From positions 32,001 through 96,000 of IMG/VR virus record IMGVR_UViG_3300044691_000566: a stretch of 64,000 nucleotides of DNA; one strand, written 5' to 3'. Below the pieces are notes generated by a model. The model searched no databases. It had not been told where the DNA came from and worked only from the letters and a program-made list of their open reading frames with translations. The position numbers and the translations under genes are program-made. Each line of letters begins with the position of its first letter. Within the stretch, counting starts at the first letter, position 1. The stretch comes from a virus. This document shows, piece after piece, positions 9,625 through 57,871 of this stretch.

Positions 9625-10079
9625 CCACTCGACTCGGCAAAGGCCAGCGCTGGGTGCTGGAGGAACTGGACAGCGGCGACGGCTGCTGGACCCGCAAGTC
9701 GCGCTGGGTGCTGCACACCTGTGGCGGCACGATCCGTACGCTGGACGCTCTCGCCGCACGCGGCCTGGTGACCTGCCTCGACCGTCGTGCGGGCACGGAG
9801 AGGTACGAGATCACCGACGCGGGCCGGGCGATAAACCAGCAGCCCACCTCGGCCCAACTGGACTCGCTCCTGGTCATGATGGCCGAGGAGGACTTCGAGT
9901 GGCGCGACGCCGAGGGCGGCTGGTGGTGGCGCAGCCGGGACTTCACCCGTACGTGCATGGAGCTGCTGGTCCGGCAGGGCCTGGTCGGCAAGCACGGCAA
10001 GATCTACGGCCTGGGCCACAAGGGCCTGGAGCGCGCCAAGGCCAAGGGCTATGACCCCAGCGTCATTTACGAGGACTGA
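9621..10079 (+). CDS. putative tandem winged-helix DNA-binding protein
   Basis: Two L..RGLV...Y.IT..G-type wing motifs. Confidence 0.5.
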   Translation: MTTRLGKGQRWVLEELDSGDGCWTRKSRWVLHTCGGTIRTLDALAARGLVTCLDRRAGTERYEITDAGRAINQQPTSAQLDSLLVMMAEEDFEWRDAEGGWWWRSRDFTRTCMELLVRQGLVGKHGKIYGLGHKGLERAKAKGYDPSVIYED

Positions 10080-39939: not shown

Positions 39940-40521
39940 ATGCTCGCAGACTTCCAGATACGCAAAGCCGTCGAAGACTGCTGGATCAGCGTCAAGCCCT
40001 TCCGCGAGGAGCACCTCAACCCCGTCTCGCTCGACCTGACCCTCGGCAATACCGTCCGGACCGTCCGGCGCGATGTCCAGATCATCGACACCGCGATGGC
40101 CGACGTCGAGCCCAACACCACCTACTACGGATGCGTCCCCTCCTGGCACCCCCACACCGACGAGGGGGTCATCCACGCCGACGGCTACCACCTGCGCCCC
40201 CGCGAGTTCATCCTGGCCAGCACCGCCGAGCGCATCGAGCTGTCCTCGTTCATCGCCGCCCGGGTGGAGGGCAAGTCCTCCCTGGGCCGCCTGGGACTGC
40301 TGGTGCACGTGACCGCCGGATTCGTCGACCCCGGCTTCGAGGGCGAACTGACCCTGGAGATCGCCAATCTCTCCGACGTCACGCTTGTCCTGTACGCGGG
40401 CATGCGGGTCTGCCAGCTCACGTTCGAGACCGTCGAACCGCCCGAGCAGGACTACCGGCACACGGGCCGCTACCAGGGCCAGACCGGACCCACCGAGTCC
40501 CGGTACCGCCACATTCGCTGA
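39940..40521 (+). CDS. dcd: dCTP deaminase
   Basis: NPVSLDLTL, EGKSSLGRLGL.VH.TAGFVDPGF.G.LTLE, GRYQGQ. Confidence 0.95.
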   Translation: MLADFQIRKAVEDCWISVKPFREEHLNPVSLDLTLGNTVRTVRRDVQIIDTAMADVEPNTTYYGCVPSWHPHTDEGVIHADGYHLRPREFILASTAERIELSSFIAARVEGKSSLGRLGLLVHVTAGFVDPGFEGELTLEIANLSDVTLVLYAGMRVCQLTFETVEPPEQDYRHTGRYQGQTGPTESRYRHIR

Positions 40522-43004: not shown

Positions 43005-44387
43005 ATGAGTGATCTGTGGACCGAGGCGTCCTACGACGCCGAGGCCGAATACCGGACCCGGAACCTGGAGATGGCCAAGCAGGCCAGCACCGGCATCTGG
43101 TCCTTCCTTGCCCTCGCCCAGTCCCCGCAGGAGTACGACGACCGGGTGGCCCTGGCCACCGACTCCATCACCGTGGCCGCCCACGCCTTCCAGGTCCCCG
43201 CCGACGACCTCCTGACGGTCTTCGCCCAGCGCTACGCCCTGCTGATGGAGGCCAAGGACAACCCCTTCGCCAACGATTCTCAGGACGACTCCGGGGACGA
43301 CTCCAAAGAATCCAAGGGCGACTCCCATGACGAGGACGACTCCCATGACGACTCTCATGACGACTCTCATGACGACTCCGATGACGACGAGAACGGCGAC
43401 GACACCGGAGACGGCGACGACGAAGACGACGACAAGGGCAACAAGGGCGACGGCGCCGACGACGTAGACGACCAGACCGACCCCGACGACGACGGCGACC
43501 AGGACAACGCCGACAACGACGACAAGGGCCAGTCCCAGGACCCCGACCAGGACGACGACGAGGCCAAGGGCACCACCCAGGGCATCTCCCCCTGGGGGAG
43601 CCGCTACGCCGCCCTGGCCCAGCGCATCGCAGCGGGCGAAAACCCGCTGGAATGGGGTGGTACCCCTTTCGTCGGTAGCCCCGCCCGCAAGCACGCGGCG
43701 GACGGGGCACCCGACACCCAGGCAGGCCCCGAAGGCCCCGCCGGACCCAACGAGCCCGCCCCGCCCGGAGAGCCCGGAACGGAACCCCCCACCGCCCCCG
43801 GCGGACCCGTCACGCCCCCGCAGGAGCCCCTCGTCCCCGGCATGAACGGCGGCATCGCCGAGACCACCAAACCCCGCCAGCTCCCCGCAGACGGCGGCAT
43901 GGACCCCACCACGGGCCCCGGCATGGGCATGGACGGCATCCCCGGCGAATTCAACCCCACCATGAACGGCGGCGACATCGAACAGGGAGCCGACAGCGGC
44001 CCCACCGCACCCGACGAAGCCCGCACCGCCAAACTCCGCACCATCACCGCCGAGGTCAAGCACTACAACCCCGCCCTCACCCCGGCCCAGTGCCACAACG
44101 TCGCCGTACGCGTCTACGAGCGGTACCTCCACAAGCACGCCGAGGACGTCAACCCGCTCCTGTACGGAGACCGGGGCCCCGTACCCGACGGGCCCCTCAC
44201 CGACGCCGTCAAAAAGTGGTCCCCCACCGACATGAAACCCCCCAAGACCACCCCCGGCATGCCCGGCGCAGCCCCCGGCGGATCAAGCACCCCCGGACTG
44301 CCCTCCGGAGGCGCGGGCGGAGGAGCAGGCGAACTGGCCGCCGGGGAAGGCACCGCCGCCGAACTCCTCCCCCTCCTGGCCCTGTAG
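43005..44387 (+). CDS. putative virion protein with Asp-rich tract
   Basis: D-rich and P/G-rich linkers; KQA, KHA and RTA motifs. Confidence 0.7.
   Translation: MSDLWTEASYDAEAEYRTRNLEMAKQASTGIWSFLALAQSPQEYDDRVALATDSITVAAHAFQVPADDLLTVFAQRYALLMEAKDNPFANDSQDDSGDDSKESKGDSHDEDDSHDDSHDDSHDDSDDDENGDDTGDGDDEDDDKGNKGDGADDVDDQTDPDDDGDQDNADNDDKGQSQDPDQDDDEAKGTTQGISPWGSRYAALAQRIAAGENPLEWGGTPFVGSPARKHAADGAPDTQAGPEGPAGPNEPAPPGEPGTEPPTAPGGPVTPPQEPLVPGMNGGIAETTKPRQLPADGGMDPTTGPGMGMDGIPGEFNPTMNGGDIEQGADSGPTAPDEARTAKLRTITAEVKHYNPALTPAQCHNVAVRVYERYLHKHAEDVNPLLYGDRGPVPDGPLTDAVKKWSPTDMKPPKTTPGMPGAAPGGSSTPGLPSGGAGGGAGELAAGEGTAAELLPLLAL
43320..43385 (+). repeat. 12-bp coding tandem repeat (DSHD)
   Basis: GACTC(C/T)CATGAC units. 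Confidence 0.7.
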
Positions 44388-44880: not shown

Positions 44881-44913
44881 TGTCCACCACGCCCGATCTC
44901 CGCCGAAAGGTTG
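44880..44913 (+). promoter_or_regulatory. candidate late promoter (variant)
   Basis: ATGTC-N20-GAAAGGTTG. Confidence 0.6.
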
Positions 44914-44923
44914 GAGGTGGACA

Positions 44924-46822
44924 GTGGCCAAGATCAGACTGTGTGACCGCTGCGGAGGAAGATCATCCCCGCACATTCCCCGGGAGCGCGTGGGCGACCA
45001 GATGCTCTGCCAGGGCTGCGCACACGCCGTCGCCCGCCAGCGCACCGCCACCACCCCCACCACCGACTTCTGGCCCGGCGAACACACCCCCGAGGGAACC
45101 CACCCCCTCCTCGCCCCGCTGCCCCCCTCCGTCTGGCGCCGCTACCACAGCACCCAGCACACCGCAGCCCCCGACGCCCCCGGCTACCCCAACCCGCACC
45201 ACCAGGAGATGCACGGCCCCGACAGCCCAGCCGCCCACGAGTGGTACCACGGCACCAGCACGTCCTTCGAAGGACCCCCCAAAAGCGCCACCGAACTCAT
45301 GAACGACCACCAGTACTGGGGCAACTTCGGAGCAGGCGACTGGAACAACCACATCGGCTCCCACTGGACGTCCCTCCACGGCATGGCCAAGGGCTTCCTC
45401 GCCGCCAGCAGCGCAGGCAACCGCGTCATCCACGCCAAGCTCCACATGAAAAACCCCGTCAAATACAACTCCCTGGACCACATGACGCACGACGCCTACG
45501 AGCGCCTGTCCGCCTCCGGGGACATGCAAGACGGCGGAGAACACGTCGGCAAACACCAGGACGACGCAGGAGACCACTCCTGCTGCTCCGGAGCCCTCCT
45601 GCGCTACGCCAAGGGCGAGCACCGCTCAGACGGCAAATACGGCCTGGAACGCTACCGCGACTCCCTGCGCGCCTCCGGCCACGACGGCATCCTCATGCGC
45701 AACAACACCGACGACCCGATCGGCCACTGGAACGCCATCCCCCTGTCCGCCGACCACATACAGATCACCAACAGCGGCTGCAACCGCCCCCACCACGACC
45801 CCCGCGACCACGACGACACCGAATTCGAAGACCACCGCAGCAAGCTCCTCGGGAACTGGCAGGAAGAAAAGCCCTACCACCCCGCCCAGTACACCCACGG
45901 CAAGCCCCTGCCCGGCCCCGGAACCGTCGACCACGCACACACGCAGAAGAAGGCCGACACCTTCCCCCACCTCCAGCCCCACCAGAACCGTCCAGACGCC
46001 GACCCCCACACCCACGGCGAAAACCTGGACGAACTGCACGAGGAGAACGAACCCTCCTTCGGCGGCGAATACTGCGCGCACTGCGACGACCTCACCGACC
46101 ACACCACCGAGCAGCACGGCAAAGAACACGACCTACGGCACCTGGAAACCGAACACGGCTACGGACCCGACCACTACCTGCACCACGCACTCCAGGAAAT
46201 GAGCCCGCAGGAAGTGGCCGACCACCACGAACACGAACACACCACCGACTTCCCCAGCGGCGACTTCCCCACCCATACGCACTTCCCGAAGGAGGCCCGT
46301 ATGGCCGGGGCCATGAACAAAACCGCCCACGACAGCGGCGACGGCGCCACCATCTTCCACTGCCCCTTCTGCGGCTCCGGCCAGGTCATCGCCCGCAGCG
46401 ACCGCACCACCGAGTGCGAGTACTGCCACGCCTGCTTCACCGTCCAGGTCCAGCCCCAATTCCCCGCATTCCCCCAGACCATCGACGGAATGCCCATGCA
46501 GGTCCCCGGCATGCCCGGCCAGATCGGCGGACCCCCCGCAGCACCCCCCGGCGCCGACGGCACCATGCCCCCCGGCCAGGACCCCATGGCCGACCCCATG
46601 AACGGCGGCATGCCCGGCGAAGAAGACCCCGCAGCCCAGGACGAGCAGGACCCCGCCGCCGAAGAAGACAGCGCACCCCCCTTCGCCAAGGGCTCCATGC
46701 TCCGCACCGCCAGCGGCACCCCCCTGGACTGGGACAACTACCTCCGCCACCTCGCCATCAGGCACGCCGACAACGACCAGCGAGACGCCGTGATCGAACG
46801 CGTCCGGGGAGAACGACGATGA
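44924..46822 (+). CDS. multidomain protein with ART-PolyVal-like ADP-ribosyltransferase and Zn ribbons
   Basis: WYHGT...G.HWTS...A..F...V.HAKL.MKNP...LRASGHDGI; CxxC at both ends. Confidence 0.7.
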   Translation: MAKIRLCDRCGGRSSPHIPRERVGDQMLCQGCAHAVARQRTATTPTTDFWPGEHTPEGTHPLLAPLPPSVWRRYHSTQHTAAPDAPGYPNPHHQEMHGPDSPAAHEWYHGTSTSFEGPPKSATELMNDHQYWGNFGAGDWNNHIGSHWTSLHGMAKGFLAASSAGNRVIHAKLHMKNPVKYNSLDHMTHDAYERLSASGDMQDGGEHVGKHQDDAGDHSCCSGALLRYAKGEHRSDGKYGLERYRDSLRASGHDGILMRNNTDDPIGHWNAIPLSADHIQITNSGCNRPHHDPRDHDDTEFEDHRSKLLGNWQEEKPYHPAQYTHGKPLPGPGTVDHAHTQKKADTFPHLQPHQNRPDADPHTHGENLDELHEENEPSFGGEYCAHCDDLTDHTTEQHGKEHDLRHLETEHGYGPDHYLHHALQEMSPQEVADHHEHEHTTDFPSGDFPTHTHFPKEARMAGAMNKTAHDSGDGATIFHCPFCGSGQVIARSDRTTECEYCHACFTVQVQPQFPAFPQTIDGMPMQVPGMPGQIGGPPAAPPGADGTMPPGQDPMADPMNGGMPGEEDPAAQDEQDPAAEEDSAPPFAKGSMLRTASGTPLDWDNYLRHLAIRHADNDQRDAVIERVRGERR

Positions 46823-47022
46823 CCGACACCCGCACCCTCTACGTCCTCGTGAACTACACCGACCACGCCGCCACCCACCAGCGCGGCGAATCCGTCCAGT
46901 TCACCACCGACGACCGCGAAGCCGACGAACTCCTGCGACGCGGCGTCCTCACCACCCACCCCGTACGCCGCCAAGCCGGAGAAAACTCCGCCCGCACCGA
47001 GCCGAAGGCCGACCAGACATGA
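46819..47022 (+). CDS. small late protein
   Basis: ATGA overlaps. Confidence 0.65.
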   Translation: MTDTRTLYVLVNYTDHAATHQRGESVQFTTDDREADELLRRGVLTTHPVRRQAGENSARTEPKADQT

Positions 47023-47327
47023 TCGCCAGGGAGGTCCTCGCCCTGATCGAGGGCACTCCCTCGATCACCCTGCCCGGCATCCCCGCCAACGGCATCAACT
47101 GCCAGGGATCCAGATTCCACTCCCCGCGCCCCATGCTCCTCCACCGCGTGGAACTGCCCCACAACCCCGGACAGCCCATCTACCTCTGCGGCACCTGCGC
47201 AGACAACTACCACCTCCTGCACGCCCTGGAACAGCCCCGAAAGGTGCCCTGGCCCGTCCGACGGTGCTTCGGAAACATGATCCGGGCCCTCGTGCCCCCC
47301 AACACCCAGGAGCACGACCGTGCCTGA
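47019..47327 (+). CDS. Zn-binding late protein
   Basis: C...H...LCGTC. Confidence 0.65.
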   Translation: MIAREVLALIEGTPSITLPGIPANGINCQGSRFHSPRPMLLHRVELPHNPGQPIYLCGTCADNYHLLHALEQPRKVPWPVRRCFGNMIRALVPPNTQEHDRA

Positions 47328-49425
47328 GACGCCCCCCACCCCGGACGAATGGAAGCAGGCCGTCTTCCAGCGCCTCGGCAAGGCCATGATCCGAGGAGGA
47401 GCAGCCCGGACCGACGGCACCCCCGAAGCCGCCCAGATGAAGGCCAACCGCCGCGTCGCCATGAAGAAGACCGGCGCCGCCACCCCCGCGACCGCCTTCG
47501 CCACCGGCCGCCCCCGCGACCCCCTCTTCTACTGGAAGCAGAACAACCTCCCCTACGAGGTCGACGACGAAACCCAGCTCCGGCAGCTCCGCATGTACTG
47601 CCGCCTCCTCTACCAGACCCACCCCGTCATCGCCTCATGCATCGACATCTACACCAAATACCCCCTCCTCGGCATGGAACTGCGCTGCAAAGACGAGCAG
47701 ATAACCCAGTTCTACGAAGACCTCTTCTTCACCGAGGACGGCCTCAACTACGACGAATTCCTCCTCGACGTCGGCCGTGAATACTGGACCGTCGGCGAAG
47801 CATGGCCCTTCGCCACCTTCAATGAATCCCTCGGCATCTGGGACGACGAAGAACTCCTCAACCCCGACGACGTCTCCGTACAACGCTCTGCATTCCTCAA
47901 AGAACCCCGCTTCCTCATCCGCCTCCCCGAAACCATCCGCGAAATCATGCAGAAGCGCTCCCCCGCCTGGGAGTACGAGAAGCTCATGCAGGTCTACCCC
48001 GAACTGTCCCAGTACGGCGGCGCCGACGACATGATGCCCGTCTCCAACATTCTGCTCCGCCAGATGAAATTCAAAGCCGACACCTTCTCCAAACGCGGCA
48101 TCCCCATCCTCATGCGCGCCATGCGAGCCGTCATGCAGGAAGAAATGCTCAACGCCGCCCAGGACGCCATTGCCGACCGCCTCTACACCCCCCTCGTCCT
48201 GGTCAAACTCGGCGCCAGCGCCACCGACCTGGGCACCGAAGTCCCCTGGATCCCCACCCCGGACGACCTCGAAGAGTTCATGGAGTCCCTGGACGCCGCC
48301 CTCGCCGCCGACTTCCGCGCCCTGGTGCACAACTTCGCCGTCACCATGGAACCCGTCTTCGGCCGCGAAAACATGCCCGACATGACCCCCGACTTCGAAC
48401 GCCTGGAAGACCGCATACTCCAGTCCTTCGGCATGTCCAAAACCATGCTCAACGGCGCCTCCTCCGGCGAGACCTACGCCGCCGACGCCCTCAACCGCGA
48501 CCTCGTCTCGCAGCTCCTCACCACCTATCAGGACATGATCAAGCGCCACTTCCACCAGCGCGCCCTCGTCGTCGCGGAGGCCCAGGAGCACTACGACTAC
48601 GACGAGCGCAACGGCAAGCGCTTCGTCAAAATGGAAGAAATCCTGGAAATCGACGAGGAAACCGGCGAAGAACGCATCGTCGAACAACCCAAACTCCTCG
48701 TCCCCGAACTGGTCATGCAGACCATGTCCCTCAGCGACGAATCCGCCGAACGCGAATTCTTCGAAGCCCTCCGCGCCGCCGGAGTCCCCATCTCGATGAA
48801 GACCCGCCTCATGGCCTCCGGCATCGACTTCGAAGACGAGGTGGAGCGCACCCAGGACGAGCAGGTCCAGCTCGCCATCGCCGAGCAGGAGACCCGCAAG
48901 AAGATCTACCAGGGCCTGAAGGACAAGGGCCTCCCCATCCCGGCGGACATGAAGATCGACTTCCAGCCCGCCGCCGAGCAGGCCCAGCCCCCGGCCATGC
49001 CCATGCCACCCATGCGCGCACCCATGCTCGGCACCGACGACATCACCCCCACCCCCAATCTGGCCCCCACCCAGATGGACCTCATGGCCGACGAGCCCGC
49101 CGGAGGCGTCCCCATGCCCGGCATGGACGCCCAACCCGTGGATGGCTCGGAGACCGGCGGCGAAGCCCCCGCCGAAGGCGCCCAGCGCCCGCCCGAGAGC
49201 GACGAGCAGCGCGGCGGCATGCCCAAGCCCGCCGCCCTCTTCCGGCAGTCCGAGCGCACCCGCAAGCTCGCCCGGGAGCTGTACCGGCCCCGCGAGAAGC
49301 CCGACGACGTACCGCTCAGCGAATGGGACCCCATCGGCAAGTTCAGCCAGCCCAAGGTGGTCGGCGTCCGTCGCCACATCGAGGTCGACCCGAAGACGTT
49401 CTACGAGGAGGCAGTAAATGCCTAA
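47320..49425 (+). CDS. putative portal protein
   Basis: 701 aa; R.YCR..Y..HPVI..CIDIY..YP, GEAWP, LLNPD.V, RG.P.L.R, PL.L.KLG pattern of large-phage portals. Confidence 0.7.
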   Translation: MPETPPTPDEWKQAVFQRLGKAMIRGGAARTDGTPEAAQMKANRRVAMKKTGAATPATAFATGRPRDPLFYWKQNNLPYEVDDETQLRQLRMYCRLLYQTHPVIASCIDIYTKYPLLGMELRCKDEQITQFYEDLFFTEDGLNYDEFLLDVGREYWTVGEAWPFATFNESLGIWDDEELLNPDDVSVQRSAFLKEPRFLIRLPETIREIMQKRSPAWEYEKLMQVYPELSQYGGADDMMPVSNILLRQMKFKADTFSKRGIPILMRAMRAVMQEEMLNAAQDAIADRLYTPLVLVKLGASATDLGTEVPWIPTPDDLEEFMESLDAALAADFRALVHNFAVTMEPVFGRENMPDMTPDFERLEDRILQSFGMSKTMLNGASSGETYAADALNRDLVSQLLTTYQDMIKRHFHQRALVVAEAQEHYDYDERNGKRFVKMEEILEIDEETGEERIVEQPKLLVPELVMQTMSLSDESAEREFFEALRAAGVPISMKTRLMASGIDFEDEVERTQDEQVQLAIAEQETRKKIYQGLKDKGLPIPADMKIDFQPAAEQAQPPAMPMPPMRAPMLGTDDITPTPNLAPTQMDLMADEPAGGVPMPGMDAQPVDGSETGGEAPAEGAQRPPESDEQRGGMPKPAALFRQSERTRKLARELYRPREKPDDVPLSEWDPIGKFSQPKVVGVRRHIEVDPKTFYEEAVNA

Positions 49426-52768: not shown

Positions 52769-55700
52769 ATGGGGCTGGGACGCCGCGAGGCCGCACACGA
52801 CACCGCGCTGTCGCGCAAGCAGGCCGGGGACTATCCCACCGACTACTCGGTGGGCCAGAAGGTCATGACGGTCGACGGCATCCCGGGCCGTGTGGAGGAG
52901 GTCATCTTCTCCCCGGCCATGGGGGAGGAGTACGACGTCGTCCTGGACGATGGGGCCGGGCGCGGGACGTATGCGCCCTCCCAGCTCTCCCCGTACGCCA
53001 CCAGCACCCACCAGGCCACCGGGACGCACCTGGCCTCGGACGACTACGAAGAACTTACGGACGTCTTGCGCGACAGGCCCGACATCGCCGTGCCGGTGCG
53101 GTTGGGGTCCCTCCAGGTGCAGGCGTCCACGGAGCCCCTGCCGGGATACGGCACGCCGGGGCCGCGTCCCGAGCCGGAGCAGCCGGATGACGACGAGCAC
53201 TACGACCCGCCGTGCGCCTACCCGCACGAGGGGCCGTGCCCGGTGTGGCCCGAACCCCACGACCACCACACGTCGTCCGTGCACCTCGCGATGCCCCCCA
53301 AGTCGGGGAAGCCCCCCGTGGGCGAGTACTCGTACAAGGTGCATCCCTCCAGCGGCCTGTTGACCGGCTACATCAACGGCGAAGAAGCCGGGTACATCAA
53401 CCACACCCCGTACCGGAACGAGGACGAGTACGGCCACTACGAGGACTACGGCGACGGGGACGACAACCACGAGCACCACCCGTTCAGTGCCGGTCACAAG
53501 GCGGGCGCCGTCAAGGTCCACATGCTGCACACCAACCCCGCGCACCGGGGATCCGGTGTCGCCTCGGCGATGATGGACTCGCTCTACCACCACTACCCGA
53601 ACGCCTGGATCAACCACGGCTACCGGACGGACAATGGGTCGACGTGGTGGAACAAGTACGACGAACCGGACCCCGGTCGCAACGTCCACAACGTGAGCCC
53701 CGACGACCACTCGCACCGGCTGAAGAAGCACTGGACGAGCCACTTCGATGTCGACGACGTGGTCAGCGACATGGACTCCCTCTCCCGCACCAACGAGGAG
53801 CAGGGTCACGAGGGCAACGCGCACCGGCAGTGGGATCAGACCGAGCACGGCGGGACCGGCGCCAGTCCTTCCTGTGAAGACTGTGACTCCGACAGGGACC
53901 ACTACTGCCACGACTGCGAAAAGTACTACCCGCACCGGTACGAGGGCGACACACACGGCGATGATTGCCCGAAGCGGTGCGAGGAGTGCGACTCCGACGG
54001 CGAGCACGAGTGCCCCACGTGCAAAGAGTGGGTCCATCACGACGACCTGGAGCAGCACGAGCAGGACCACCAGGACGAGCATGCGGCCGACGACGAGCAC
54101 GACCCCGTCCAGGTCGGCCTGCACAACTCCGTCACGGTCCCCCTCACCCGCAAAGAGCACGACTTCGTGCACAATCCGGCCATCCCGGCGGACAAGCGGG
54201 CCCACCACCTGCTGAACCGGATCGGGCGGGGCGCCATGCCCAGCCACGACTGGGACGTCGACCCCAAGACCTCGCACGAGATCGAGCACGACTCCCACGA
54301 GCAGACCCCCTACTCTCGGGGCCTGCACACGACGGTGACCCTGCATGCCCACCCGCTGAACGAGCACGAGGCCCAGGACGGTTTCGGCAACGACAGCTAC
54401 ACCCGTGAAGGCGAGCGGTCGCACTTCGACGCCGTCCCCACCAAGTTTCGGCTGAAGGGCATGTCCTGGGGTGACGGCCCCCGGGAGGCGGAACATCACC
54501 ACGAGTTCCCCGGCCACGGCCAGCGGGTGGCCACCGCGCCCAGCACGTACAACAGCCAGCCCGGGAACTACCCCCGCAGCCTCAAGCCCCTCCTGCGCCA
54601 GCCGGGCCACGAGCGCCCGGCCCCCGAGGTCCACCCCGAGCAGGGCAAACTCTTCGCCCGGAAGACGGCCGCGACCCGTGCCGACTTCCAGTTCGAGCAC
54701 GAGGACACCGACATCCGTGGCATCAAGCACGGCTACAAGAACCACCTGCGGGCCATCCACCCGGAGACGGGGGAGCACGCCGGGACGCTGACATACTTCG
54801 CGCCCACGCGTAAGGGTGCCCCGGTGATCGTGGACGATCTGACGACGTCGCACCCGGGCGCGGGCTCCGCGCTGATGGACGAGGTGGAATCCCGGCACCC
54901 GGGCAGCCGGATTCAGCACGGCGTGGACAAGCCCATGAGCAAGGGCAAGCCGCACTACGACCACTCGGACTATGGCAAGGCCACCGACTGGTCCGCCCAC
55001 TACCCGAACCTGCCGGAGCAGGTCCACCGGGGCCTGAACGTGCGCCTGGAGGGTTCCGACGCCCGAGCGGTGACGCGCGGGGAGGGGTCGGCCGCCGACC
55101 ATGCCCAGATCCTGCACAGCGCCTTGCGCGATGGCGGACCTCTCGGCATGCACTGGTCGTCGGACGAGGAGACCAGCCGGAACTTCGCACACCGCAACAT
55201 TCGGGACCCCCGTAAGGACGTGCCGGTAATCCTGCACGCCGACCGGCCCGCCCAGAAAGACCTCGAAACCCGGCCGAACGTGCTCAAGAACAACGGGGTG
55301 TGGATGCACGACTACGAGCACGGCGACGCCGAGGTGCCGGTGCGCCGGGGCCGGTCGGTGAACCTCCGGGGGATCTCCTGGAAGCCGGACGCCCCGCACT
55401 CGGAGGCCGACGCCAGCGGCTGGGTGCACCACACCTTCGGCGAGGGCAGTCAGCACACTGCCGCTCTGTACGCGGCCGTCGGGGGCGAACCGGTCTACCG
55501 GGGCTTGAACCTCGGGCTGGCGAGCGACGAGGACGTGGAGCATCTGCACCGGGACCCGGTGGGGTACCTGAACCAGAAGGGCTTCCGGCCCCACGAGGCG
55601 GGCATCCACTGGTCCACTGACCCGTACACCGCGCACAACTTCGCCCTGGCCCACGATGAGGACGACGACGACGCCACTCCGCACACCCACGGGGTGATCC

Positions 55701-57871
55701 TGCACGGCCGGGCCGAGCCTCAGCACGTTGTGCAGCACGGTACCCCGGAGTGGGACGACTACGCCGATCAGTACGAGATCCACGGGGAGAACAGTCCCGA
55801 GCAGGAGCGCACCGTACGCACGGGTGCCCCCGTGCAGATCACCCACGCCACGGCGGTCTCCAAGCCGGTATGGGGCGACGAGGGCCGTGAGACCGAGGTG
55901 CCCTGGGGGAGCCAGGTCACCGCCAACCAGCAGGACGGCTTCCTCGCCGACACCGCCGACGAGGCCCCCGAGGAGGAGATCGTCTCCCAGGGCGCCTTCG
56001 ACCCGTACGCCATCCTCACCACCGCTGCCGCCGATCCGGAATTCCGCTTCCACGTCACGGCCGCCTGGGCCGACGTCCGCCGCAAGGCGAAGCGGATCCG
56101 CTCCGAGGGCGGCGTACGCATCACCCTGGCCACCGACGGCGTGGTCTTCGGCGAGGTCAAGGGCGACCACCACGTCTACGAGACCGGCGTACAGCGCTTC
56201 CCCGGCACCAAGCACTCCGTGGCCACCTACACCTGCGGCTGCAAGTGGGGCGCCTACCACTGGGGCGCCCCTGACGACTTCAGCCACTTCGCCGGACGTA
56301 TGTGCTCCCACGCCCTCGCCCTCCAGTACGAGGCCCAGTCCCGGGGCATGTTCGGCCGGGACGTGGAGGTCGACTCCACCAAGCCCGAGTGGGTCCCGAA
56401 GAAGGTCGTCCTCCGCTACGACATCGACGACGGCACCAACCGGATGGTGCGCTCCAGCACGAAGACGGCAGCAGCAGAGCCCAATCCGCACGGTCTGTAC
56501 CTGCGTTTCGGCAGGTGGCCCCACGACGAGCGCTCCACCAACAACATCACGGGTGCGAAGGAAGACGGGGTCAGCGTCTACGACCTCGATCATCACGGCC
56601 GCCCCATGGACCCGGACCCGGACGACAGTCGGACCAACATCGACGACGGGGACCGCAACTGGCCCAAGGAGGAGATGCACGGCCGGGTGGGCAAGGCCGA
56701 GCGCGACCGCAAGTGGGGCAATGACCATCCTGACCGTCAGGCCCACATCGTGAGGGGCGACATCGCAGGCTTCGGTCACGACAATGAGCCGCTGCTCAAC
56801 AACGTCGAGCGGATCGGCGACTGGATCGATCACCGGCATCTGTTCTTCAGCGGCAAGCCGCATCCCCTCGCCCGCAGTGAGGACCACGACGACTATGAGC
56901 CGCCGGAGGAGGAGCCCCAGCACCGTACGGCTGCCCTGGAGGTCACCCCGCTGGTGGCCCTCGCGCAGTGGTCCCGTGCGCAGGGCGACGACCCGGAGGA
57001 GTTCGCGTTCCTCCTGGGCATGCACGGCCTGACGGCCGCGATCAGCTCCCCCTGGGGCGAGCCGCAGGCCCCGGCCGCCAACTACACCCCGGGACCGACC
57101 AAGCCCCGCAACCCCGCCGAAAACCCCGGATCCACCGGCTGGGCCACCCAGTCCGACCCCGACAACTGGGATTCGATCAACCCCAACGACCTGGGGGACC
57201 GCGTCGCGGCCCTGGACGAGTTCCTGTTCGAGGGTGCCATCCCGCAGGAGATCGCCCAGTCCGACGACCCGATGGCCTCCTCCCCGGGCACTGAGGACAC
57301 CCCCCTGGAGAACGGCGTGACGGCGTACTGGCGGCACATGGAGGACGTGGCGATGACCACGGAGGCCATCTCGATGCTGGGGGAGCAGGACGGCCCCCTC
57401 TGGCCGTCCGGGCCCAAGGGCGGCCGGGGCGGTCCGATGCCGCCGGGACACGCGCAGATGCCGGAGCACGAGGAGCTGACCCCCGGAGCCGAGGCGGATC
57501 TGCATGTGCAGCCGGAGGGGGCGCTTCCGTACACCGACGGCGACGGCCCGGACCTGACCGACGACGAGTCCCTCACCCCGTCCCGGACCGCCTCCCTGGG
57601 CAGCAGCATCCTGGAACAGTTCCAGGCCACCGCCTCCCACTTGGCCCCCGGCGGCTCCACCAGACCCTCCGGACGCGGGGGTGTCGCGGCGGAGATCGCC
57701 GCCCAGGCCCGGGAAACCCTCAGCAAGATCGCGCTGAAGGACTACAGCCCCGCAGAGCAGGCTGCGATCATCAATGAGGGTGTCAACGTCAGGGCCTCCA
57801 ACCTGGACCGCCTGGACGTGACCGGCACGCACTACGAGTCTCAAGAAGACGAGGACGGGATATGGCCGTAA
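52769..57871 (+). CDS. 1700-aa polyvalent protein: SH3-like, 2 GNAT, Zn cluster, 2-3 ADP-ribosyltransferase-like domains, SWIM
   Basis: [11 protein letters not shown] and HPGAGSALM (GNAT); VHRG..HWSSD..AEV and VYRG..HWSTD..EQE (R-S-E ART); CGC...CSH (SWIM). Confidence 0.75.

Follow-up and report, generated by a model that had tools for sequence, protein, structure and literature searches.

An ADP-ribosyltransferase-like domain as variable cargo of a zinc-ribbon protein encoded upstream of the portal in large uncultured phages

In the present work, we analyzed a 64,000-nucleotide (nt) stretch of viral DNA (the window), comprising bases 32001-96000 of the 159,746-bp record IMGVR_UViG_3300044691_000566, which has direct terminal repeats and a G+C content of approximately 67%. 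The window contains an open reading frame (ORF) at 44924-46822 (+) for a protein of 632 amino acids (aa), whose middle part is predicted with good confidence to adopt an ADP-ribosyltransferase (ART) fold and occupies a variable slot between two zinc ribbons. We consider it likely that the product is an ART delivered from the phage head on a modular zinc-ribbon carrier; the analysis itself shows the homology of the domain, its predicted fold, the conserved positions of a putative triad, the variable content of the slot and the fixed synteny, whereas catalysis, target, packaging and ejection are the parts of this reading that we infer.

Sequence evidence for an ART domain

The four motifs in which an earlier note on this DNA had recognized an ART pattern were present as listed, at residues 107-111 (WYHGT), 147-150 (HWTS), 176-178 (KNP) and 252-256 (GHDGI), and they lie between two CxxC zinc ribbons as that note had stated. 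The CxxC pairs were found at residues 7 and 29 (N-terminal ribbon) and 480 and 498 (C-terminal ribbon), with one further pair at 384. The four motifs are not a chance resemblance, because H109, G110, H147, G252, D254 and N260 were invariant in 32 aligned relatives.

Judged by profile comparison, the middle domain is homologous to domains that pass the Pfam ART-PolyVal model (PF18760). An exhaustive phmmer search with residues 86-399 against 1.8 billion representative proteins revealed 10 close relatives (E 1e-121 to 1e-38) and 18 distant ones (E 1e-10 to 1e-3). Two of the distant relatives, P0062 and P0072, pass the PF18760 cutoff themselves and match the query at E 1e-8 and 2e-4, and four others come close to this cutoff. 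The domains accompanying the ART domain in distant relatives (NUDIX, 2H/LigT, GNAT, SprT and ParB_N) are the usual company of ARTs in polyvalent proteins. In addition, a hidden Markov model (HMM) built only from the close clade of the query matched the Pfam-called ART-PolyVal segments of P0181, P0183, P0174 and P0175 (E 1e-8 to 1e-11), four proteins that had been found independently via the conserved C-terminal part described below, and hhalign comparison of the query clade with Pfam-positive ART-PolyVal segments gave a probability of 99.8% (E 2.8e-29, 177 columns). A sequence search of the PDB with two family profiles returned nothing relevant.

Among four full-length orthologues, the ART core was the best conserved part of the cargo (71-80% identity vs 39-56% in the flanking linkers). 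Relative to the 140-position PF18760 model, the query domain contains a helical insert of approximately 65 residues (residues ~184-250). It represents a divergent ART subfamily with His on strand 2, which is missed by the Pfam model.

Predicted structure and putative active site

An ART (split beta-sheet) fold was predicted with good confidence for residues ~100-300 (45221-45823, +), as the earlier note had supposed. The AlphaFold2 model of residues 86-310, built from the 32-sequence alignment, had a predicted local distance difference test score (pLDDT) of 84 and a predicted template modelling score (pTM) of 0.85. The top PDB match in Foldseek was chain B of the cyanophage A4 pre-ejectosome (E 3e-4), followed by diphtheria-toxin homologues, tankyrase, ParT, MbcT, SAIP and AcrIF11. 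VIA-align, a method independent of Foldseek, was run against 48,161 representative chains; essentially all of its top 34 rows belonged to the ART superfamily (Z 4-7.2), and the A4 chain was again the best (Z 7.2). Among predicted viral structures (BFVD), 56 matches were observed at E<=1e-3, many of which are named PolyVal ADP-ribosyltransferase or ART-PolyVal-like; others included a capsid protease/MuF fusion and an N4-like virion RNA polymerase.

A putative catalytic triad, H109/H147/D254, was assigned by secondary-structure position and spacing. Of the model strands, 107-111 contains H109 and 147-148 contains H147, and D254 sits at the front edge of the strand at 255-259; the codons of the three residues lie at 45248-45250, 45362-45364 and 45683-45685 (all +), respectively. 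According to the family description (PMC5512222), polyvalent-protein ARTs have His, Tyr and Asp on strands 1, 2 and 5, respectively. H109-G-T agrees with the strand-1 pattern (H-G-[ST]), and D254, the putative catalytic acid, agrees with the strand-5 Asp. On strand 2, His147 occupies the position reported as Tyr, in the query as well as in each of the 32 aligned relatives, Pfam-positive ones included. The spacing of H147 to H109 and F158 appears to mirror the H...Y-F-A...Y arrangement of diphtheria toxin and PARP. The active Tpt1/KptA clade is recognized by just such a His-His pair on strands 1 and 2 (PMC7955679), and therefore His147 is no argument for inactivity, although it may mean a different substrate. 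The R-S-E triad of the Alt/VIP2 type (Arg, Ser-x-Ser, Glu) does not fit, as strand 1 carries His109 and strand 5 carries Asp254. We had also considered a family-wide Glu in the 'N..E.P.GH' motif (Asp263 in the query clade) as the catalytic residue, and dropped it in favor of D254 given the Asp on strand 5 in the family description (PMC5512222).

A variable slot between two zinc ribbons

The conserved parts of the protein family are the N-terminal ribbon (residues 1-42) and a C-terminal core, the C-core (residues 456-632). Homologues with the two zinc ribbons only, for which the earlier note had suggested looking, exist and are common, many of them being 216-247 aa in length. A search for short proteins yielded 97 further members, many of them 216-224 aa long. 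In these compact forms, the sequence '...ARER' is joined directly to 'KEARVA...' and the second ribbon, at the point where the query has residues 43-455. This junction alignment defines the cassette (45050-46288, +) that is missing from compact homologues. Thus, because ribbon-only homologues are common, the ART domain is cargo in a variable inter-ribbon slot and not an invariant core, as the earlier note had also suggested. Neither of the two outcomes by which this note would have been refuted, lack of a predicted ART fold or an invariant core, was observed.

When the architectures of all 162 clusters containing the C-core were counted, compact forms of 216-272 aa made up 63, divided between those with a type 1 ribbon (24 clusters) and those with a divergent, longer type 2 ribbon (39 clusters). 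ART domains were found in 20 clusters, inteins in 14, and other inserts of approximately 70-550 aa without Pfam matches in 40, whereas the remaining 25 consisted of the C-core only and may be truncated.

The cassette of the query is composite. Behind the ART domain lies a His-rich and acidic region (45824-46111, +) with a CxxC...D-H knuckle at Cys384/387, followed by a His-rich unit of approximately 59 aa that closes the cassette (residues 397-455; 46112-46288, +). Histidine accounts for 9.3% of the whole protein and 16% of residues 301-455. The closing unit is the sole insert of three proteins of 285-299 aa (P0076, P0078 and P0084), and its profile matched only the carrier family and the C-terminal parts of giant homologues.

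These giants emerged from a search for longer proteins, which yielded 17 members of 1,150-2,290 aa ending in the same C-core. Precomputed Pfam domains in the fused giants comprise PF18760, Arr-ms, ParB_N, GNAT and an intein; several of them also open with the N-terminal ribbon, and one of 1,551 aa occupies exactly the same slot (L028). The whole cassette of the query is collinear, at approximately 45% identity, with one internal block of ~400 aa in giants of 1,400-2,000 aa, in which knuckles like that at Cys384/387 recur. We also observed a split form in four loci (L005, L006, L016 and L017), where an ORF of 1,534-1,654 aa has the N-terminal ribbon at its start and a query-type ART domain at residues ~790-1055. 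In L005, the TGA of the cargo gene overlaps the GTG of a type 2 compact carrier gene (GTGA, 9776-9779) with GGAGG just 5' of it, and the same GTGA arrangement is present in the other three loci, so that the two genes may be translationally coupled. A separate, divergent N-terminal ribbon (C-x2-H ... C-x2-C) is present on the downstream carrier. P0006 and P0007, candidates for unrelated carriers of the domain, were rejected: they have the C-terminal ending of the giants and no N-terminal ribbon, and are most likely 5'-truncated split giants.

The earlier note had described the domain as a cargo module inserted into a structural gene. Cargo of variable presence was indeed found; 'structural' is a matter of gene order. 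In the C-core tree, fused giants fall in one group and close relatives in another, the deep branches of the close relatives being unsupported and the tree unrooted. We accordingly describe the slot as variable, with cargo gained or lost, and claim no insertion event. A repeated gain of the ART domain by mid-size forms, indicated by a FastTree analysis of the C-core, was dropped, since a better tree was compatible with a single origin of the ~630-aa ART form. Of the putative bounds that the same note had drawn around the domain, RTA (40), HTA (79), KEA (456) and KTA (466) occur literally; the enrichment of [KRH][TE]A was modest, with 5 copies vs 1.2 expected from shuffles (P about 0.005) for a pattern picked post hoc, and one copy, the fifth (at 594), is found not at a boundary but within the C-terminal mini-domain, which is conserved.

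Carrier modules

The whole gene, comprising the zinc-ribbon carrier and the cargo cassette, has full-length orthologues with 63-67% identity in independent contigs with the same synteny. Its GTG start is preceded, 6 nt upstream, by a Shine-Dalgarno sequence GGAGG (44913-44917, +). The public gene call (P0001, 606 aa) begins at Met27, inside the N-terminal ribbon, and thereby cuts off 44924-45001; the starts of the giant homologues P0052-P0054 were mis-called in the same way. The longer 632-aa version is favored because homologues open with the same N-terminal ribbon.

This first module (residues 1-42; 44924-45049, +) includes the ribbon with Cys 7, 10, 29 and 32 and the start of a helix, and it is kept in compact and mid-size proteins as well as in fused and split giants. 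For P0077, which among the compact forms is closest to the query, the model was modular (pLDDT 73, pTM 0.29): ribbon 1-29 and helix 30-48 were confident, a second ribbon followed at 64-95, and a disordered Pro/Gly/acidic stretch (pLDDT below 50) led to a C-terminal end formed by a hairpin and two helices (pLDDT 85-97). The cargo insertion point falls within the helix after the first ribbon. In the query, the corresponding linker (residues 521-585; 46484-46678, +) is predicted to be disordered and shows 46-58% identity among orthologues, and the mini-domain of hairpin and two helices (residues 586-632; 46679-46819, +) is conserved across the carrier family.

The junction and the C-terminal ribbon (residues 456-520; 46289-46483, +) together form the most conserved part of the family, with 89-94% identity among orthologues. 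Its first portion (46289-46400) contains H-D-S-G-D-G ... C-P-F-C-G-S-G-Q, invariant in 68 sequences and beyond the needs of a plain zinc ribbon. Relatives carry LAGLIDADG-type inteins in this ribbon (P0008-P0013, P0037, P0040, P0042, P0043, P0046-P0048 and P0187) at two sites, one directly before the first Cys of the CPFC knuckle, which serves as the +1 residue, and the other after the second CxxC knuckle (P0048). The query carrier has no intein. Since relatives host inteins at both Cys knuckles, this stretch seems to be functionally critical.

Genomic context and distribution

The position of the gene is fixed. In approximately 40 IMG/VR viral loci, we found the order up779 (~750 aa), up460 (an acidic protein of ~450 aa), up162 (~160 aa), slot gene or genes, and portal. 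The slot thus lies between head-module genes and the portal, among the packaging or late genes where polyvalent proteins are encoded. The earlier note had placed the gene upstream of the portal, which is correct, except that a conserved 102-aa gene containing Cys residues (47019-47327, +) intervenes. This small gene gave tblastn matches of 35-57% identity in 27 fetched loci and no Pfam or PHROG match.

The portal gene itself (47320-49425, +) was identified by phrog_2833 (E 4e-156), and its product is 41% identical to the portals of Cluster C mycobacteriophages (~155 kb), which are by this measure the nearest cultured phages. A scan of about 185,000 prokaryote genomes did not find the carrier, and the family is so far confined to uncultured phage contigs of approximately 150-160 kb. 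On the 3' side of the portal, closer relatives have tailspike genes and then a protein of the 1700-aa type; the window has a beta-helix tailspike and then a multi-domain protein of 1700 aa (52769-57871, +).

According to the earlier note, the HW[T/S] motif is shared with ARTs of this 1700-aa protein. The motif does occur there, three times as HW[ST]; homology was not supported, since the ART family profile gave only local scores of 6.9 and 3.7 bits on the two segments concerned. These segments, within residues ~740-1130, each consist of a V-[HY]-R-G-L-N start and G-[MI]-H-W-S-[ST]-D ... N-F-A, an apparent Arg-type counterpart of the motifs in the query. A SWIM-like CxC...CxH motif is also present in the protein, as are CxxC...D-H knuckles like those of the post-ART region. 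As a homologue of the ART-bearing giants it was rejected, BLAST revealing no similarity.

Other observations concern neighboring genes and the rest of the genome. Two genes upstream of the carrier, a 460-aa protein (43005-44387, +) contains a long acidic and His-containing run of repeated D-S-H-D units, has no family match, and keeps its position in about half of the related loci examined. A dCTP deaminase/dUTPase-like gene (39940-40521, +; Pfam DCD, E 2e-42) lies approximately 130 nt 5' of the first gene of the conserved head-module block. Outside the window, the same phage genome encodes a domain of the Arr-ms (rifampin ADP-ribosyltransferase) type (G000:C1:113998-114300; L052), with a score of 31.6 bits, above the cutoff.

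Proposed role and alternative explanations

In the reading that we consider likely, the carrier is built of four modules, namely the two zinc ribbons, a disordered linker and, at the C-terminal end, a small helical domain, and the inter-ribbon segment is a hot-swappable cargo slot, filled here with a single cassette of approximately 410 residues made up of the ART core and a His-rich tail. The protein would be produced late, alongside the head proteins, and take its place in the capsid close to the portal through the ribbons and the C-terminal module; its ejection would accompany that of the DNA. At the very outset of infection, the ART domain would then act as T4 Alt does and transfer ADP-ribose from NAD+ to a host macromolecule. 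For ARTs encoded beside portal or terminase genes or within polyvalent proteins, head packaging followed by injection, after the model of T4 Alt, has already been predicted (PMC5512222 and PMC9503650).

Several results weigh against this reading. A direct search against ART-PolyVal, as the earlier note had proposed, found nothing, as the Pfam model does not reach the query clade: PF18760 gave no match, whether against the whole protein (E<=0.1), the isolated domain (E<=5) or the genome translated in six frames (E<=10), its gathering score of 31.2 bits not being attained, and neither Pfam nor PHROGs gave an ART match on the protein or the isolated domain. Scores to single PDB structures were middling (Z<=7.2), in a homogeneous list. 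With His in place of the family Tyr on strand 2, chemistry or substrate may differ, and the equivalence of the triad is drawn from strand position and spacing instead of residue-level superposition. Polyvalent proteins have two to fifteen diverse domains, whereas the 632-aa protein has one recognizable enzymatic domain. As for the carrier, a fold search with the compact form returned only generic zinc ribbons, the protein atlas offered no lead, and comparison with PHROGs and Pfam yielded no family. Searches by tblastn and megablast of 50,697 cultured phage records revealed no relative of the carrier, and Catera gp87, the large protein encoded ahead of the portal gene in Cluster C, has no similarity to the carrier or the ART domain. 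Finally, packaging in the virion is deduced from gene order and context only.

This last point is the starting point of a rival explanation, in which the protein is not packaged and acts late in the infected cell; it might, for instance, modify proteins of the host or the phage while heads are being assembled, or counter defence systems sensing the portal or the terminase. The same alternative was raised for ARTs beside packaging genes in PMC9503650, and the carrier resembles no known virion protein. Nevertheless, this explanation appears rather improbable: giant proteins with several enzymes, as is typical of injected polyvalent effectors, are encoded in the same slot, structural relatives include the capsid protease/MuF and virion RNA polymerase fusions, and the neighbors (portal, tailspike and the 1700-aa multi-domain protein) are of virion type. 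We give a comparably low weight to an active ART-fold enzyme that modifies nucleic acids or small molecules rather than proteins, as do Tpt1/KptA (RNA phosphates), DarT (DNA) and Arr (rifamycins). Although the H...H of strands 1 and 2 is reminiscent of the H-H-h (Tpt1/KptA) clade, strand 5 has a conserved Asp, as in the protein-modifying H-Y-[EDQ] group, and not a hydrophobic residue. Structures of Tpt1, DarT and Arr were among the fold matches, but the top scores were to enzymes of the diphtheria-toxin/PARP type and MbcT. Relatives are fused to 2H/LigT phosphoesterase and Arr-ms domains, whereas the describers of the family group it with protein-modifying ARTs (PMC5512222).

It is less probable still that the domain lacks catalytic function and serves as a building block in an internal capsid or ejection complex, retained for its shape in the manner of the matching region of A4 gp27. 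Invariance of H109, H147, D254, N260 and several Gly residues across relatives only ~25-35% identical is the pattern of an active site and not of a scaffold, and relatives co-occur with ADP-ribose-processing partners (NUDIX and 2H). A structural role would agree with the A4 pre-ejectosome chain B as the best PDB match (Foldseek E 3e-4; VIA-align Z 7.2), for which the A4 paper gives a structural account and no enzymatic role; the strand-2 His in place of the family Tyr points the same way, but is normal in the active Tpt1/KptA clade (PMC7955679). As for a fortuitous motif resemblance in low-complexity, His-rich filler without an ART fold, the absence of Pfam or PHROG matches and the His-rich composition are in its favor. 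A confident model matching ART folds, the profile-to-profile match at E 2.8e-29 and conservation of the domain at 40-60% identity in many proteins make it extremely improbable.

Comparison with known systems

Phage polyvalent effector ARTs as a kind are already known. The closest family is ART-PolyVal (PF18760)/Tox-ART-HYD2 (Iyer et al. 2017; PMC5512222), with which the query domain shares homology, seen both in profile-to-profile comparison and through intermediates, the predicted fold, the strand-1 His and the strand-5 Asp. As in polyvalent systems, its gene stands among those for phage head proteins. Relatives that share the C-core, including one from the same slot (L028), are true multi-enzyme proteins with ART-PolyVal, Arr-ms, ParB_N and GNAT domains. 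It differs from ART-PolyVal in being unseen by the Pfam model, in its strand-2 His instead of Tyr, in the ~65-residue helical insert and in having a single enzymatic domain. The carrier modules are absent from the head-protein fusions (MuF, portal and capsid peptidase) named in the available part of PMC5512222.

T4 Alt exemplifies the logic proposed here, in which an ART is synthesized late, packaged and delivered with the genome to modify host targets immediately. However, Alt belongs to the R-S-E (Alt/VIP2) clade with a different triad, and its packaging has been demonstrated, whereas here it is deduced. Alt reaches the capsid by means of a cleavable targeting sequence and not by zinc-ribbon modules. 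The MuF/SPP1 gp7 fusions likewise represent a head-module gene near the portal with variable enzymatic cargo, ARTs included. No Pfam match to MuF/SPP1 gp7 (PF04233) was found on the protein and no PHROG match on the carrier; moreover, the cargo of the query lies between two carrier modules instead of at the C-terminus, and the carrier is separable from its cargo. The best match among solved structures, cyanophage A4 gp27 (PDB 9k3a chain B; PMC12002296), is an internal capsid protein of >1,700 aa that is ejected on infection. The likeness is structural only (16% identity, no sequence-profile match), and A4 is a cyanobacterial podophage, whereas the nearest cultured relatives of the query phage by portal are Cluster C mycobacteriophages. 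An ART-like domain in gp27 is not discussed in the A4 paper (PMC12002296).

What is specific here is the carrier family, the location of cargo between two carrier modules, the series of empty, single-cassette, giant and split forms in one slot, and the ART subfamily with His on strand 2. Because the Pfam model misses this subfamily and PHROGs does not match it, annotation with these resources leaves such proteins 'hypothetical'.

Biological implications

We tentatively propose, as a broader possibility, that the N-terminal ribbon and the C-core constitute an undescribed, dedicated cargo-loading adaptor of a large clade of uncultured phages (~150-160 kb) of actinobacterial type, analogous but unrelated to MuF, whose slot could hold from 0 to >2,000 residues of exchangeable effector cassettes. 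In the split form, a ribbon-tagged giant might be recruited non-covalently to the capsid, and the His-for-Tyr ART subfamily could have a substrate class new to polyvalent ARTs.

Effectors packaged in the head are at work within seconds of the onset of infection; they form a major component of the arms race between phages and their hosts, but one that has been poorly tested. The empty, one-cassette, fused-giant and split-giant forms in one syntenic slot provide a natural series in which the loading of capsid cargo and the targets of PolyVal-type ARTs may be studied.

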